64,000 nt of DNA, taken from the sequence record NC_101837.1, one strand, 5' to 3'. The notes below the pieces were generated by a model. It was not told the DNA's origin and did no database searches. It was given only the letters and a program-made list of their open reading frames with translations. This stretch comes from a phage. Below are positions 44,012 through 61,174 of the stretch, piece after piece. Position 1 is the stretch's first letter, and each line of letters starts with the position of its first letter. Both the position numbers and the translations under genes were made by a program.

Positions 44012-46348
44012 TTACCAAAGGTCGGTAGACATGAAGTTGATATCTTTATTGTTCTCCCACTCAAGTTTTGCATCAAATATTTTGTTAAACTCACCCTCAT
44101 CTATTGAAATCGTGATTTTCCCATCACTGATCTCTAAAGGTAGCATTTCCATAGTTCTTAATTGAGAGGCAAAACCAGGGCCACCTGGCAACGGAAGAGT
44201 CCCGCCCGGTAAGGTGTCCAAAGGATTAACAAATCCGTTACCTCCCGATATGATATCTTTGCGAATCATATCGCTGATAGTATCCAGCTGCTGATTTCTT
44301 TCACTTAGTGGGTTGTAACGGTCATTAAATAATTCCCCGGCGCTTAGTATTGTACCGATAATGCCCAGCTTACCGAGCAGACCAACTTTGCCACCAGGTG
44401 TCTTGAGGCCACCCCCACCTTTTCCTGCCGGAGCTCCACCACCAGATCCTTCTGTAGTAGCGGCACCTGCTACTCCAGCTGCACCCCTTAGAGAGCTAAG
44501 GAATTTAAAGGTTTTTACAAGCATAGATGCCATGACAAAACCTTTTGTTAGGGCGTTGACGACCAGCATGATGGCAGCAGCAAACCCTGCCCATTTAGCA
44601 TAGCTAAAGGTGTCATGAAGCTCTTCAGAATATTCCTTCGTCTTAGCTGTTATGAACCCCCATTTAATCCCCCATTCAAGGAAAAACATGCGGATCTTGA
44701 CTATAGTGTTGTTCAGTTCACCAACTACCCAGTTAAGGCCTCTCACAAACCCGCTAACAAAATCACCAGAGGCATCCCACACAAATTGCAGAGTCTCACC
44801 AGTGCGGATTAGTGTATAATAGAACTCTGTTAGTTCGTCAGACCAACGGGTGAACAGTTTCTGACGAGTCAGTTCGATAAAGGTTTTCAGTCTGTTTTCT
44901 GCCAGCACGTTAGACTTCTGCATTCTTTCATAACCAGCTGCAGATGCCTCGTTCATGTACTTAGCCACATACTTCATGATCTTGGCTGTTTTAACCTCAC
45001 CTTTCTTCATCATGTCCATGAACTGATCCATGGAGAGTTCAGAAAGACCAAAAGCCTCTTTGGTGGCCTTAATAAAAGGTTCGTATGCACCAGGCAATGC
45101 TTCAGCAAGTTGTTGCTTCAGTTCTTCGGACATTACCTGTCCTTTCCCGAGCATCTGTTGGATTGCCATAATACCGCGCTGGTATTTTACCTCATCGGCA
45201 CCATAAGCAGCAGCATACTGGGAGTATGCAGAAAACAGCTCATGCACTTCCTGATTTGTCATCTGGTTTTTGGCGTTTACCGACATCTGGGCGTAACCTT
45301 GAAGACCAGATTTGAGATCAAAACCAAGACGCATAGCCTCTTGCTGGACAAACGCAACCTCACTGTTGGCTTTGTTTGGATCTCCAGTGACAGCAGTAAG
45401 AGCAGCACTTGCCCCCTCCATCATGTGACCGGATCTGTTAACCGCAGCAAATCCAGAAAAAGCTGTATACGCAGCTGTTGCATTAATAACAGATCTACGT
45501 AAGTCTCTCATGGCATCGCCTAGTGTAAGCGTTTGGCTGGTGGCGCTTTTAAACCCAGACTGCAGCGCTGACAGGTGGGCGTTAAAGGTTGACTTCTTCA
45601 TCTCCCCGCGAGCAAACCTGGACTCTAACTCTGAGTATCCTGGCAAGCTTCCACGGAATCCGGCCCCATACTTGGCAGAAAGTCTTATCGCGGAGTTGTA
45701 GAGGTGGGTTCTCCTTGCCTCACGATCCGACATAAGCCTATTATCCATACCAGCTTTACTGTCTCTTCTTAGCTGTCTATGATAACGATTCATAGCGGCT
45801 GTCTGAGCTTTCACAAGGTTAGGGTCGGAAGCCACACCACCCATATTAGGGTTACCTGGGATATATTTGAAAGATTTGGCATTAGCCAAAACTCTTGCCT
45901 TAGGTGCCTTATAACCGCCGTAAGACACTGGTGCAGATTTGGCAGCCTTTTTGGCCTCTTTAGCTTGCTGCTGGTAGAACTTACGCATCCTAGCCATTTC
46001 TGGATTTTTAGCGGTAAGATTACCTACAGCTTGTTTACGTCTCGCATTCTCCCTACGTTCTATTGCAGCCCTTACTGCAGCCTCTTTCTTGGCCTGTGCT
46101 ACGCTCTCTCTGTGCAGTTTAGCATTTGCCTGAGATTGCTGTCTGGCAACCCGCTGCATTGTCTGCTGGGTTTTAACAGCTACCGCCTGCCATCTACTCA
46201 TGGGGTTGGCTGAGTTAAAATCCTCGCCCAGTTTCCTGAACTCCCTCCCAATACTGCGAATTTTCTCTACAGCTTTTTTGTAGGAGGAGTTCTCTATCTC
46301 AAAGCCAATCTTGTTGACTGTTGTGGCAACTATTTTGTTTGTAGCCAT
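44012..46348 (-). CDS. tail tape measure protein
   Basis: 778 aa, largely helical Ala/Lys/Gln-rich with Gly-rich C-terminal segment; preceded by chaperone pair. Confidence 0.6.
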   Translation of the reverse strand: MATNKIVATTVNKIGFEIENSSYKKAVEKIRSIGREFRKLGEDFNSANPMSRWQAVAVKTQQTMQRVARQQSQANAKLHRESVAQAKKEAAVRAAIERRENARRKQAVGNLTAKNPEMARMRKFYQQQAKEAKKAAKSAPVSYGGYKAPKARVLANAKSFKYIPGNPNMGGVASDPNLVKAQTAAMNRYHRQLRRDSKAGMDNRLMSDREARRTHLYNSAIRLSAKYGAGFRGSLPGYSELESRFARGEMKKSTFNAHLSALQSGFKSATSQTLTLGDAMRDLRRSVINATAAYTAFSGFAAVNRSGHMMEGASAALTAVTGDPNKANSEVAFVQQEAMRLGFDLKSGLQGYAQMSVNAKNQMTNQEVHELFSAYSQYAAAYGADEVKYQRGIMAIQQMLGKGQVMSEELKQQLAEALPGAYEPFIKATKEAFGLSELSMDQFMDMMKKGEVKTAKIMKYVAKYMNEASAAGYERMQKSNVLAENRLKTFIELTRQKLFTRWSDELTEFYYTLIRTGETLQFVWDASGDFVSGFVRGLNWVVGELNNTIVKIRMFFLEWGIKWGFITAKTKEYSEELHDTFSYAKWAGFAAAIMLVVNALTKGFVMASMLVKTFKFLSSLRGAAGVAGAATTEGSGGGAPAGKGGGGLKTPGGKVGLLGKLGIIGTILSAGELFNDRYNPLSERNQQLDTISDMIRKDIISGGNGFVNPLDTLPGGTLPLPGGPGFASQLRTMEMLPLEISDGKITISIDEGEFNKIFDAKLEWENNKDINFMSTDLW

Positions 46349-59263: not shown

Positions 59264-59533
59264 TTATCGAGGCACTCGGTGGATGATTCTAACAGTAACT
59301 GCGTTTTCATTCATCAAGTATGCATCTACATCTCTGTAAATATAAAACTTCTGCTCACTATCAACAACACAAGCTACCGCCCCTTCAGAGTTGTCTTCAA
59401 AAAAGACCACCACTGCATCGCAGCTGAGTTCATGATATGACTCTCGAAGATTTACAGCCAGAGGATTGAAATCGTCACGAAAATCTACGGTATGGGTTGG
59501 ATTTACACGCTCTACAATTTTAAGTGTATACAT
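59264..59533 (-). CDS. hypothetical protein
   Basis: 89-aa ORF followed by hairpin/U-tract at ~59170-59210. Confidence 0.35.
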   Translation of the reverse strand: MYTLKIVERVNPTHTVDFRDDFNPLAVNLRESYHELSCDAVVVFFEDNSEGAVACVVDSEQKFYIYRDVDAYLMNENAVTVRIIHRVPR

Positions 59534-59579
59534 TTTAAAGGTTCCTTTTGTCTATATATGTTTAAAGTATAACTGAAAG

Positions 59580-59656
59580 TGGTCTCCACGGAGTGATTCG
59601 AACACTCGACCTCCTGATCCCAAATCAGGCGCTCTACCAAGCTGAGCTACGCGGAG
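59580..59656 (-). tRNA. tRNA-Pro (anticodon UGG), CCA encoded
   Basis: by-eye cloverleaf: acceptor CUCCGCG/CGUGGAG (C1-G72), D-stem GCUC/GAGC, anticodon loop UUUGGGA, T-arm GAGUG-UUCGAAU-CACUC. Confidence 0.75.
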
Positions 59657-59667
59657 TATTTACTATT

Positions 59668-59742
59668 TGGTGGCCCTGGGTGGAATTGAACCACCGTCTG
59701 GCGATTATGAGTCGCTTGCTTGAACCTTCCAGCTACAGGGCC
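59668..59742 (-). tRNA. tRNA-Met or Ile2 (anticodon CAU), CCA encoded
   Basis: acceptor GGCCCUG/CAGGGCC, anticodon loop CUCAUAA, T-arm GGUGG-UUCAAUU-CCACC; D-stem has one mismatch. Confidence 0.65.
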
Positions 59743-59743
59743 T

Positions 59744-59819
59744 TGGTGCTGATGGCAGGACTTGAACCTACAACCTATTGATTACAAATCAATTGCACTA
59801 CCGATTGTGCTACATCAGC
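59744..59819 (-). tRNA. tRNA-Thr (anticodon UGU), CCA encoded
   Basis: acceptor GCUGAUG/CAUCAGC, D-stem GCAC/GUGC, anticodon stem AUUGA/UCAAU, loop UUUGUAA, T-loop UUCAAGU. Confidence 0.8.
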
Positions 59820-59824
59820 AAAAA

Positions 59825-59923
59825 GGTGCTAGGCGATGGAATCGAACCACCTATGTATTCAACGACTACCTCGTCTATTTTCAGGATTAAAAATCCTCGC
59901 CCTTGCCAAAGGGCTTACCTAGC
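59825..59923 (-). tRNA. atypical tRNA-like gene (possible anticodon UUU; ~30-nt extra arm)
   Basis: canonical T-arm GGUGG-UUCGAUU-CCAUC and 7-bp acceptor GCUAGGU/GCCUAGC, D-arm GCCC-UUUGGCAA-GGGC, anticodon region AGGAUUUUUAAUCCU, but ~97 nt long. Confidence 0.4.
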
Positions 59924-60021
59924 TCAGTATGTTGACCATGTTGCTAGTCGGCGATGACGACTGTAACATTTGATAATCCGGTTCTGCTTCCGGCTTTCGC
60001 TTAATTACAAGGTCAACAATG

Positions 60022-60112
60022 TGGCGGAGAGTAATGGAATCGAACCATCATCGAGTCATCCTCAACGGGACGGTTTTCAAGACCGCTTGAGCACCATTGC
60101 TCCCTACCCTCC
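60022..60112 (-). tRNA. tRNA-Ser (anticodon UGA), type II, CCA encoded
   Basis: acceptor GGAGGGU/ACUCUCC, anticodon arm GCGGU-CUUGAAA-ACCGU, extra arm UUGAG-GAUGA-CUCGA, T-loop UUCGAUU; D-arm spacing non-canonical in my parse. Confidence 0.55.
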
Positions 60113-60226
60113 TTTATAAATTATACTGATAATGACACTGATTTTCGAGCAGTTAGTGACTAGTATAAACGACGATAAATATCAATGCCATTATCTGTAT
60201 TATTTATGCATCTAAAAATATAAATT

Positions 60227-60313
60227 TGGTGGGGAGTGGTGGAGTCGAACCACCCGAGTCGCAATGACAATAGATTTACAGTCTACACCGCTACCTCTAC
60301 GGGATAACTCCCC
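60227..60313 (-). tRNA. tRNA-Tyr (anticodon GUA), type II, CCA encoded
   Basis: acceptor GGGGAGU/ACUCCCC, anticodon arm GUAGA-CUGUAAA-UCUAU, T-arm GGUGG-UUCGACU-CCACC; D-arm spacing non-canonical. Confidence 0.6.
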
Positions 60314-60317
60314 AATT

Positions 60318-60392
60318 TGGCACCCCGTACTGGACTCGAACCAGTGTCAACGGCTTAGAAGGCCGCTGCTTTATCCACTAAGCTAACAGGGC
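60318..60392 (-). tRNA. tRNA-Arg (anticodon UCU), CCA encoded
   Basis: acceptor GCCCUGU/ACGGGGU, D-arm GCUU-AGUGGAUA-AAGC, anticodon arm GCGGC-CUUCUAA-GCCGU, T-arm ACUGG-UUCGAGU-CCAGU. Confidence 0.7.
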
Positions 60393-60492
60393 ACTGGGTG
60401 GCTTTCTTTTACACCTTAGCCGCCAGAAAAGGTGGGAGACCATGTTTACAATATTACACTGTTAAGCAAAGTTTGTCAAGAAAATATTTTAG

Positions 60493-60828
60493 CTATTTGC
60501 TAACAGGCTGTATTTCTGTAGTAAATGGCATAAAAGGTGCTGGTTTTTCAGCCTCTTCCACTACCACCTCTTCCTCTTCACCAAACATCTCATCATATTC
60601 TTCCTGCATTCGGTCTGCCTTATCAAGAACATACTCTGCAATGCTTTGACGAATATTTTGTTTGGTTTTCGGGTCCAACATCAGCTCTCTTAAAACTTTG
60701 TGAGCTTCTGGAACCATCGCTATAAAAGATTCCTTCATATCAAGGATGTTCTTCTCTAGCTGAATGGCGTTGGACTCCTCTTTCAGAGGTCTGCCTCTAC
60801 GGCGACGCTTTTTAGTTGTATCCGCCAT
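60493..60828 (-). CDS. AT-hook-containing DNA-binding protein
   Basis: ORF track 60493..60948; ATG 60826-60828 (MADTTKKRRRRGRPLK...) preceded by GGAGGAAAC and by a consensus promoter; upstream open frame starts at TTG inside that promoter. Confidence 0.45.
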   Translation of the reverse strand: MADTTKKRRRRGRPLKEESNAIQLEKNILDMKESFIAMVPEAHKVLRELMLDPKTKQNIRQSIAEYVLDKADRMQEEYDEMFGEEEEVVVEEAEKPAPFMPFTTEIQPVSK

Positions 60829-60856
60829 GTTTCCTCCATTATCACGTGATAGGTGG

Positions 60857-60885
60857 ATTTTATCATAGCAAATACTGATTGTCAA
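60857..60885 (-). promoter_or_regulatory. sigma70-like promoter (TTGACA-17-TAAAAT)
   Basis: -35 at 60880-60885 and -10 at 60857-62 read on minus strand, 17-bp spacer, ~25 nt upstream of ATG 60828. Confidence 0.5.
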
Positions 60886-61174
60886 GTTCGCCGCAGGGTG
60901 GTATTCCCTGCGACTTGTCCAGCGTCCTGGACCAGCAAGACCCAACAAGTGGGTTACCAGAGGCCTATTACCCGCGCTTCGGCTCGACCTTGTTACAGGT
61001 TGGCTGGGGTCACATCGTCATGTGCTGGCTGCCCCTACCATTTTAAGTGTGGTGCACTATCAAGCCCTCTAAGGGGAACTCAGCCTTCTCCGAACCCTGT
61101 TTCAAAGCATCCAGAGATAAAGCCATCAAATTCATCTTTAAATTGGATATTCATCATGATACACGAAAACAACC

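Follow-up and report, generated by a model that had tools for sequence, protein, structure and literature searches.

What is the nature of a tRNA-shaped gene with one arm too many inside a phage tRNA operon, and what could it do? The question was raised by a gene in the stretch of DNA analysed here (64,000 nt of sequence record NC_101837.1, referred to as the window), for which an earlier note had left four options: a non-canonical decoder, an insertion-containing tRNA, a pseudogene or a tRNA-derived regulatory RNA. The gene runs on the minus strand from 59923 to 59825, comprises 97 nt plus an encoded CC, and lies in the tRNA operon of an rV5-type Vequintavirus. ARAGORN predicted seven genes on this strand, namely Arg(UCU), Tyr, Ser(UGA), a 'tRNA-??? 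(atcc)' at exactly 59825-59923, Thr(UGU), a CAU tRNA and Pro(UGG), which places the odd gene fourth and adjoining tRNA-Thr(UGU). The promoter of the operon and the parts of the RNA, numbered from nt 1 at window position 59923, are given below; the family is the set of homologues described later.

60451-60479, minus strand: sigma-70-type promoter of the tRNA operon, TTGACA-17-TAATAT, found by a consensus scan upstream of tRNA-Arg and annotated as P(tRNA) in NC_011041 (rV5)
59917-59923, minus strand: 5′ strand of the acceptor stem, nt 1-7, GCUAGGU, paired with 59828-59834; in the family 100% of alignment cells are paired and 5/7 pairs are changed on both sides
59915-59916, minus strand: nt 8-9, AA; the family has A8 throughout, in place of the U8 of canonical tRNAs
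59899-59914, minus strand: D arm, nt 10-25, a 6-bp stem GCCCUU/AAGGGC with the tetraloop UGGC (minimum free energy (MFE) fold); 3/6 pairs compensatory, 100% of cells paired
59898, minus strand: G26, invariant in the family alignment columns
59883-59897, minus strand: anticodon-position hairpin, nt 27-41, AGGA-UUUUUAA-UCCU, with further closure to 5-6 bp possible (sensitive Rfam scan and MFE fold); the stem co-varies
59876-59882, minus strand: 5′ junction strand, nt 42-48, GAAAAUA; the G and the A-run are nearly invariant in the family
59861-59875, minus strand: extra (variable-position) hairpin, nt 49-63, GACGA-GGUAG-UCGUU (MFE fold); a compensatory change from A-U to G-C occurs in Av-05
59852-59860, minus strand: 3′ junction strand, nt 64-72, GAAUACAUA; AAUACAUA is invariant in 28/28 members
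59835-59851, minus strand: T arm, nt 73-89, GGUGG-UUCGAUU-CCAUC (sensitive Rfam scan, MFE fold and family covariation)
59828-59834, minus strand: 3′ strand of the acceptor stem, nt 90-96, GCCUAGC (family covariation)
59825-59827, minus strand: A73, the discriminator, at 59827, then the encoded CC at 59826-59825, followed by U instead of A

P(tRNA) is the likely source of the transcript of the odd gene. The MFE structure of the RNA was a cloverleaf with an extra hairpin (-34.4 kcal/mol, z = -3.4), and 1 of 200 shuffled sequences folded as well, indicating that the fold exceeds chance. A tRNA-like gene of about 97 nt with an extra arm inside a tRNA cluster, as first described, was thus borne out by the minus-strand sequence, by the fold and by homologues carrying compensatory changes. 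The 7-bp acceptor stem is present, with a U7-G66 wobble in the window's copy, as are the T arm and the encoded CC. The two alternative foldings of the anticodon region were also recovered, AGGA-UUUUUAA-UCCU and AGGAU-UUUUA-AUCCU, and so was the 5-bp hairpin GACGA/UCGUU in the region of about 30 nt that precedes the T stem, whose exact length is 31 nt. The D arm had been called canonical and is not, since it consists of a 6-bp stem and a 4-nt loop and follows an A rather than a U at position 8.

Standard tools detected the gene marginally. The Rfam tRNA model RF00005 gave 29.4 bits against a cut-off of 29, in sensitive mode only, with model position 27 deleted and an insertion of 26 nt, and the default gathering scan of Rfam did not list the gene. 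Among all other Rfam families, only tRNA-Sec joined tRNA in giving a borderline or sub-threshold match. Annotation of the locus differs between GenBank records: none in rV5, tRNA-Lys (AAA) in the BASEL phages, elsewhere tRNA-OTHER, tRNA-Stop(tta) or tRNA-???(atcc), and tRNA-sup(tca) in Hena1. The rV5 genome paper counted six tRNAs and did not mention the odd RNA. Papers on phage tRNA-like RNAs, on the tRNAs of Vequintavirinae, on suppressor tRNAs and on PARIS were searched, and no description of the five-armed RNA came to light.

Low-stringency BLAST recovered the RNA in Avunavirus Av-05 at 93.8% identity, with both flanks lost, and in Seunavirus KE22 at 74%. When the Av-05 and KE22 copies were used as queries, about 180 enterobacterial phage records were matched, from which representatives were taken in Seunavirus (PVP-SE1, GAP31, 4MG and KE22), Mydovirus (BIS47, Ro1 and AV124), Henunavirus (Hena1), Avunavirus and the N4-like Schitoviridae (UTK0002); further members came from motif scans of viral and metagenomic contigs. 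A covariance model, R1, was built from 17 variants. It scored 28 distinct members at 97-120 bits, including the window's copy at 104.8 bits (E ~1e-25), compared with about 30 bits for the top-scoring ordinary tRNA among 224 kb of phage DNA rich in tRNAs and 35 bits for a chimeric gene of phage V18. The window's copy has all the traits by which R1 members are recognised: five helices, AAUACAUA before the T stem, G26, G43-AAA and A8. The family extends over five genera of Vequintavirinae, one N4-like phage and metagenomic phages, and its members always lie inside a tRNA operon, usually 2-6 nt after another tRNA. Members found by BLAST, which had not been picked by the AAUACAUA motif, carry AAUACAUA too, and two independent motifs from the region of the anticodon arm recovered only members that were already known. 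A loose gapped motif scan of viral contigs gave 120 loci, all of them chance matches. The family motif had no match in 185,579 bacterial and archaeal species, represented by one genome each, and BLAST found nothing in 5,426 E. coli genomes; a host origin was ruled out on these two grounds, and the family appears to be restricted to phages. By these comparisons the odd gene belongs to a distinct, conserved family of tRNA-shaped RNAs that was previously uncharacterised in the literature searched.

The helices were then examined for covariation. In the model-guided alignment, which was fitted to the model it is scored against, 98.4% of cells held standard pairs and 11/22 pairs were changed on both sides; the same substitutions are visible in a plain MAFFT alignment. 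None of 500 shuffles reached the observed score, and sliding the partners lowered the paired fraction to 32-49%. At pair 31:39 ten cells count as 'unpaired' through an artefact of register, the stem of these sequences being AGGUC/GACCU. The third nucleotide of the D loop co-varies with the third nucleotide of the T loop: D loops UGGC, UGGU and GGGU go with the T loop UUCGAYU (G with C, 20 sequences) and UGUC goes with UUAGAUU (U with A, 8 sequences). This switch is the 19:56 elbow pair changing from G19:C56 to U19:A56, probably in a single event, but one of exactly the compensatory kind. Co-variation of the elbow pair argues that the RNA is L-shaped with a tRNA-like elbow. Between the rV5 clade and Av-05 two compensatory changes were seen, each from A:U to G:C, one at A4:U69 and the other in the extra arm, and the RNA is the only part that remains alignable between them, which points to purifying selection on the rV5-clade RNA. 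As judged from these substitutions, all helices of the five-armed RNA are maintained by selection.

Several other interpretations of the structure were considered and set aside. The RNA could have been two unrelated elements or a tRNA with an insertion, and the earlier note had named a split into two elements, or a clear pseudogene, as what would speak against it; the tools used gave neither outcome, and a unit of 97-110 nt is conserved and co-varies as one cloverleaf plus arm. Pairing between the two junction strands is possible in the Hena1 type and is used by the Sec model, but it is not kept in rV5, UTK0002 or the type represented by contig L008. A hammerhead-like core (CUGA...GAAA) was judged by eye to lack the essential G of CUGANGA. 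For an antisense regulator, the complement of the invariant strand was no commoner in the window than chance would give, with 3 sites against 1.1 expected, one of the 3 being the gene itself.

The family departs from the ordinary tRNA plan in a consistent manner. The acceptor and T helices are 7/5 in 28/28 members. The D arm has a 6-bp stem and a tetraloop, and G19 is replaced by U in 8 members, with the compensating A56. Conservation peaks in the junction strands round the extra arm, which measure 7-8 nt and 9-10 nt; the 5′ strand, with G43-AAA, begins with a near-invariant single-stranded GAAAA, and AAUACAUA lies directly 5′ of the T stem in 28/28 members. The extra arm itself is a helix in almost every member and is built from unrelated sequences, for example GACGA/UCGUU, CUCCCAC/GUGGAGAG, CCCUCC/GGGAGG and GUAUG..UC/GA..CAUAC. 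In a second type of extra arm (V2) the loop GAACUAACAGUAC is conserved and the base of the hairpin co-varies (GCC/GGC, GUC/GAC or AGCG/CGCU). The rV5 type has the shortest extra arm of the family. Given that the extra arm and its invariant flanks are ancestral to the whole family, with a longer arm in other genera, the option of a tRNA containing an insertion was abandoned. At the 3′ end, UCCA is encoded in 21/28 members; the rV5 clade has ACCU or ACAU, and UACA or CACA also occur in the rV5/Av-05 clade, whose 3′ ends would need CCA repair. The discriminator is U73 in 22/28 members, A73 in the rV5 clade only, and U73 or C73 in all others. In Seunavirus, about 190 nt downstream of the odd RNA are conserved between phages (...AGUGCAUUAGCUCAGAUUAUUUGA...CGGACUGAUCAUCUGUG...; contigs L135 ~297-487, L140 ~290-480 and L005 ~2302-2492, the last on the minus strand). 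This stretch gave no tRNA call and no Rfam match and could be another non-coding element.

The arm at the anticodon position is never 5 bp with a 7-nt loop; it is 4 bp with 7 nt or 5 bp with 6 nt. Its stem co-varies, with A-U or G-C at 27:42, and its loop differs in sequence and size among lineages, even between related phages. Nine loop variants were found, including CAUCAAA, UAUCAAA, CAUCCA, CUUCCA, CCUCCA, CAGCCA, UUUUUAA and UUUAUAA. Decoding tRNAs almost always have U33; most members instead carry A or C there. The conservation pattern is the opposite of what decoding predicts, because the elbow, the acceptor stem and the junction strands stay constant and the anticodon-position loop is free to change. 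Moreover, clusters with a UCC-like-loop RNA also encode a canonical tRNA-Gly(UCC), and a canonical tRNA-Lys(UUU) is present in the clusters of contigs L164, L152 and L172; in clusters with either tRNA the five-armed RNA would be redundant as a decoder.

We consider tRNA mimicry more likely than ordinary decoding as the function of the five-armed RNA, and give about an even chance to the specific proposal that it is a processed, CCA-ended, non-decoding tRNA mimic that engages a tRNA-binding protein. The RNA would be co-transcribed with the phage tRNAs from the operon promoter and freed by RNase P at G1, and its 3′ end would be trimmed and completed to CCA; in the rV5-type copy, which encodes CC, the A must be added. 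It adopts an L shape with a normal elbow between the D and T loops and a rebuilt core, in which the 6-bp D stem with its tetraloop and A8 are combined with long, invariant junction strands that flank the extra arm. The acceptor/T-elbow half may permit entry into tRNA-binding sites, and the family-specific core and the extra arm may provide specificity. The most likely partner would be a host enzyme that acts on tRNAs, for instance a defence nuclease or toxin that targets them or an aminoacyl-tRNA synthetase, and the RNA would decoy or block this enzyme. A non-decoding role is suggested because the anticodon arm is 1-2 nt short, usually lacks U33 and carries a loop that varies between related phages. 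Of the four options with which the analysis began, a tRNA-derived or tRNA-like RNA is the best supported.

A counter-defence role can be put on this proposal. In PARIS, the nuclease AriB is directed against the tRNAs Lys(UUU), Thr(UGU) and Asn(GUU); tRNA variants of phage T5 neutralise PARIS and rescue growth (PMC12409363). Since tRNA cleavage is a common antiphage mechanism and T5 offers a precedent, a decoy or inhibitor role would be plausible by analogy. The mimic might then be retuned in its loop per lineage, to Lys(UUU) in the rV5 type and to a Gly(UCC) or UCA type elsewhere, and titrate or block tRNA-targeting nucleases or toxins; in the rV5 clade it might alternatively be a nuclease-proof, chargeable lysine tRNA on a non-tRNA scaffold. 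We regard this extended version as speculative and rather unlikely as a whole.

The strongest competitor of a non-decoding mimic is a chargeable, non-canonical elongator or suppressor tRNA, similar to the allo-tRNAs, which would read AAA as a lysine tRNA in the rV5 type and GGA or UGA in other genera. Its body would escape recognition by anticodon nucleases (PrrC, RloC and PARIS AriB), so that it could rescue translation after cleavage of host tRNA-Lys. We hold this explanation to be possible but doubtful. It is favoured by the canonical acceptor and T arms, by the encoded CC or CCA and by tRNAscan-based annotations, which call the gene tRNA-Lys, or tRNA-sup(tca) in Hena1. Only the rV5 clade joins the loop UUUUUAA (U33, UUU, A37 and A38) with A73, and rV5 has no canonical tRNA-Lys; UUU and A73 are identity elements of E. 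coli LysRS. Members of other lineages combine UCC or UCA with U73, a hint that aminoacylation identity may matter, and the UCC-type members have U73, G1:C72 and C2:G71, which we take to be most of the GlyRS identity set. These Lys-like and Gly-like coincidences suggest either that charging matters or that specific host tRNAs are imitated. The neighbouring tRNA-Thr(UGU) is also a target of PARIS AriB (PMC12409363), and translation in E. coli accepts odd-shaped tRNAs that have a Sec-like D arm and a long V arm (PMC5389517). On the other hand, the anticodon stem is either a 4-bp one, with G43 unpaired, or, in the MFE fold, one of 5-6 bp whose loop has 5 or 3 nt; most members have A or C at position 33 and a loop 6 or 8 nt long. 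In Av-05, the closest relative, UAU goes together with U73, an incoherent identity; the UCC-like-loop members sit beside canonical tRNA-Gly(UCC); and the strongest conservation is found in the junction strands, which decoding does not need. The decoder option thus stands as a live rival, weakened by an anticodon arm that is non-canonical in every member and variable between lineages.

Two explanations that assign the mature RNA no role were also weighed. The RNA could be a processing 'punctuation' module of the polycistronic tRNA precursor, recruiting RNase P and the 3′ enzymes and serving no purpose once released. Its constant position within tRNA operons, abutting tRNAs, would agree with such a module, as would the fact that the acceptor/T half, which RNase P recognises, is its most tRNA-like part. 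However, the neighbouring tRNAs carry their own RNase P determinants, and the invariant junction strands, the V2 loop, the maintained extra arm and the encoded CCA would be left unexplained, which makes the module improbable. A decaying tRNA pseudogene, or a tRNA broken by a chance insertion, is less probable again and in our view hardly credible. The borderline generic tRNA score (29.4 bits), the loss of the encoded CCA and the shortest extra arm in the rV5/Av-05 clade and the deletion of the gene in V18 would fit decay, but every helix shows compensatory substitutions, over five genera or more, the elbow pair co-varies, the RNA is conserved where its flanks have diverged (about 94% identity between rV5 and Av-05, though the flanks are unalignable) and the extra arm is ancestral. 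The pseudogene option was discarded for these reasons, and the mimic is retained as the preferred reading.

Phage V18 provides a natural loss of the gene. In this phage (contig L006 1205-1277) a deletion begins within tRNA-Tyr, of which the 5′ half is left, and ends within the odd RNA, of which the 3′ part is left; the two remnants are fused at a short shared GUCGUUG/UUGUC stretch. Lost between them are tRNA-Ser, the spacer and two-thirds of the odd RNA, from its 5′ side. Because V18 lost the gene in this way, it is dispensable under some conditions and not essential on the isolation host. The loss fits an accessory or counter-defence role, and a weak function would fit too.

A protein partner of the five-armed RNA was sought by gene neighbourhood, and no candidate was found. 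The flanking ORFs at 59267-59533 and 60496-60948, both on the minus strand, matched only PHROGs with no assigned function and gave no Pfam match. A Ro-like DUF2828 protein, encoded beside the related tRNA cluster of Klebsiella phage KP2025, was rejected as a partner: it is common in unrelated phages and not co-distributed with the RNA, no vequintavirus was among the DUF2828 matches listed, and the RNA was absent from the 4-kb stretch of KP2025 that was searched. The KP2025 DUF2828/DUF7788 protein has weak similarity to the Ro60 vWA domain, and its start is overlapped by a 432-nt 'tRNA-Arg-TCT' (contig L178 3088-3519), which is a mis-annotation or an interrupted tRNA. Clusters of the ~150-kb Klebsiella-type phages also contain a tRNA with the anticodon CUA, of the amber-suppressor type (L159 7862-7934, L172 2791-2865 and, in KP2025, L178 2695-2766), which is labelled tRNA-Pyl by ARAGORN and tRNA-Sup-CTA in GenBank.

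Some further observations concern the surroundings of the gene in the window. Over the 951 bases round it (59500-60450), identity is 100% to MG065646.1 and MG065647.1, which were submitted under the name 'Campylobacter phage D1/D#', and 99.8% to Escherichia phage V5 (rV5, Vequintavirus). About 19 'Campylobacter jejuni' phage records are unannotated rV5-type coliphage genomes, and their host label appears to be wrong or due to contamination. The spacer between tRNA-Ser and the odd gene (~59935-60003, minus-strand RNA) contains a core of about 65 nt with 83-88% identity to lambda 44866-44952, which lies between orf-64 and the lysis genes in late-gene orientation; further matches to the core were seen within the tRNA region of P7/D6 (P1-like) and in one Salmonella siphovirus. 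The core contains two hairpins, one with a compensatory change (GUCG..CGAC in the window, GGCG..CGCC in lambda and P7), with a fold z of -2.6 and no Rfam family match. The CAU-anticodon tRNA (59668-59742, minus strand) is annotated as tRNA-Met in rV5 and most records and as tRNA-Ile (ATA, i.e. lysidine-modified) in the BASEL phages. The tRNA-Ser(UGA) at 60022-60112 (minus strand) was missing from the gathering scan and scored 41.5 bits with the tRNA-Sec model, and the tRNA-Tyr at 60227-60313 (minus strand) scored 29.9 bits with the generic Rfam tRNA model and 33.7 bits with tRNA-Sec; such weak generic scores indicate that long-arm phage tRNAs are easily overlooked.

The family bears on both annotation and experiment. 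The gene is present in some 180 deposited genomes from phages of therapeutic relevance (rV5, PVP-SE1, the BASEL vequintaviruses and Klebsiella mydoviruses), without annotation in some and labelled tRNA-Lys, tRNA-Stop, tRNA-sup or tRNA-OTHER elsewhere. Given these conflicting labels, inferences on codon usage and "suppressor tRNAs" drawn from them are unsafe, and a dedicated covariance model would mend the annotation. The family also illustrates how far a tRNA core can be rebuilt with the L shape retained. As cleavage of tRNAs comes to be recognised as a widespread antiphage strategy, the family offers a concrete and genetically tractable candidate for a phage tRNA mimic, for which V18 supplies a natural deletion. 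The species 1 and 2 RNAs of phage T4 illustrate that cluster-encoded RNAs may remain unexplained for decades; the five-armed family is diverse enough to guide experiments.

Finally, the family was compared with known systems. Of the traits of a canonical elongator tRNA, the 7-bp acceptor stem, the 5-bp T stem and the UUCRANY T loop are present, and the anticodon arm of 5 bp and 7 nt with U33 and purine 37, U8, the D stem of 3-4 bp and G18 G19 are not. Type II tRNAs (Leu, Ser and Tyr), to which the neighbouring tRNA-Ser and tRNA-Tyr belong, share a cloverleaf with a helical extra arm. Type II tRNAs combine extra-arm linkers of 1-3 nt per side with a D stem of 3-4 bp and an anticodon arm of 5 bp and 7 nt; in the five-armed RNA, in contrast, the linkers are 7 and 9 nt long and invariant. 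The T4 species 1 and 2 RNAs (rnaC and rnaD) are likewise small stable RNAs in a phage tRNA cluster, and rnaC ends in a module resembling a T arm and acceptor, but they are 119-139 nt long and form no cloverleaf. R1 gave no match to rnaC or rnaD at E <= 1, and in the T4 region it matched only ordinary tRNAs, at about 25 bits. With no function known for them to our knowledge, the T4 species 1 and 2 RNAs are counted as analogues in position and kind. The T5 tRNA-Lys, tRNA-Thr and tRNA-Asn that act against PARIS (PMC11464382, PMC12409363) are also phage RNAs in tRNA clusters, and the rV5 copy has a tRNA-Lys-like loop and adjoins tRNA-Thr(UGU); the T5 RNAs differ in being canonical tRNAs with few point changes, and any charging or protection by the five-armed RNA is purely putative.

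The closest resemblances were found elsewhere. Bacterial tRNA-Sec (RF01852) shares the 6-bp D stem with a 4-nt loop, the absence of U8 and a long extra arm, and one lineage of the family has UCA. For members outside the rV5 clade tRNA-Sec is the best Rfam model, at 22-39 bits against a cut-off of 47, and for the window's copy the best is the generic tRNA. The Sec model forces mismatched terminal pairs on family members, which have 7/5 acceptor/T helices rather than the 8/5 (13-bp) of Sec and U or A rather than G as discriminator; moreover, their anticodon arm is shorter, the UCA lineage has A33 and the junction strands are far longer. The allo-tRNAs and SelC*-like tRNAs (Mukai et al., 2017, PMC5389517) have a Sec-like D stem-loop with a tetraloop, a long V arm, U73 in many cases and diverse anticodons; some lie in phage tRNA clusters, and a role as suppressor and/or regulatory RNA has been proposed for them. 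Their trait of G73 or U73 is shared by most members, with the window's copy having A73. The acceptor/T helices that define allo-tRNAs are 8/4 or 9/3, and their anticodon stems are longer; the family has 7/5 helices, a shortened anticodon arm and long invariant single strands. Thus, the core of the family lies closest to tRNA-Sec and the allo-tRNAs, and its setting resembles that of the T4 cluster RNAs.
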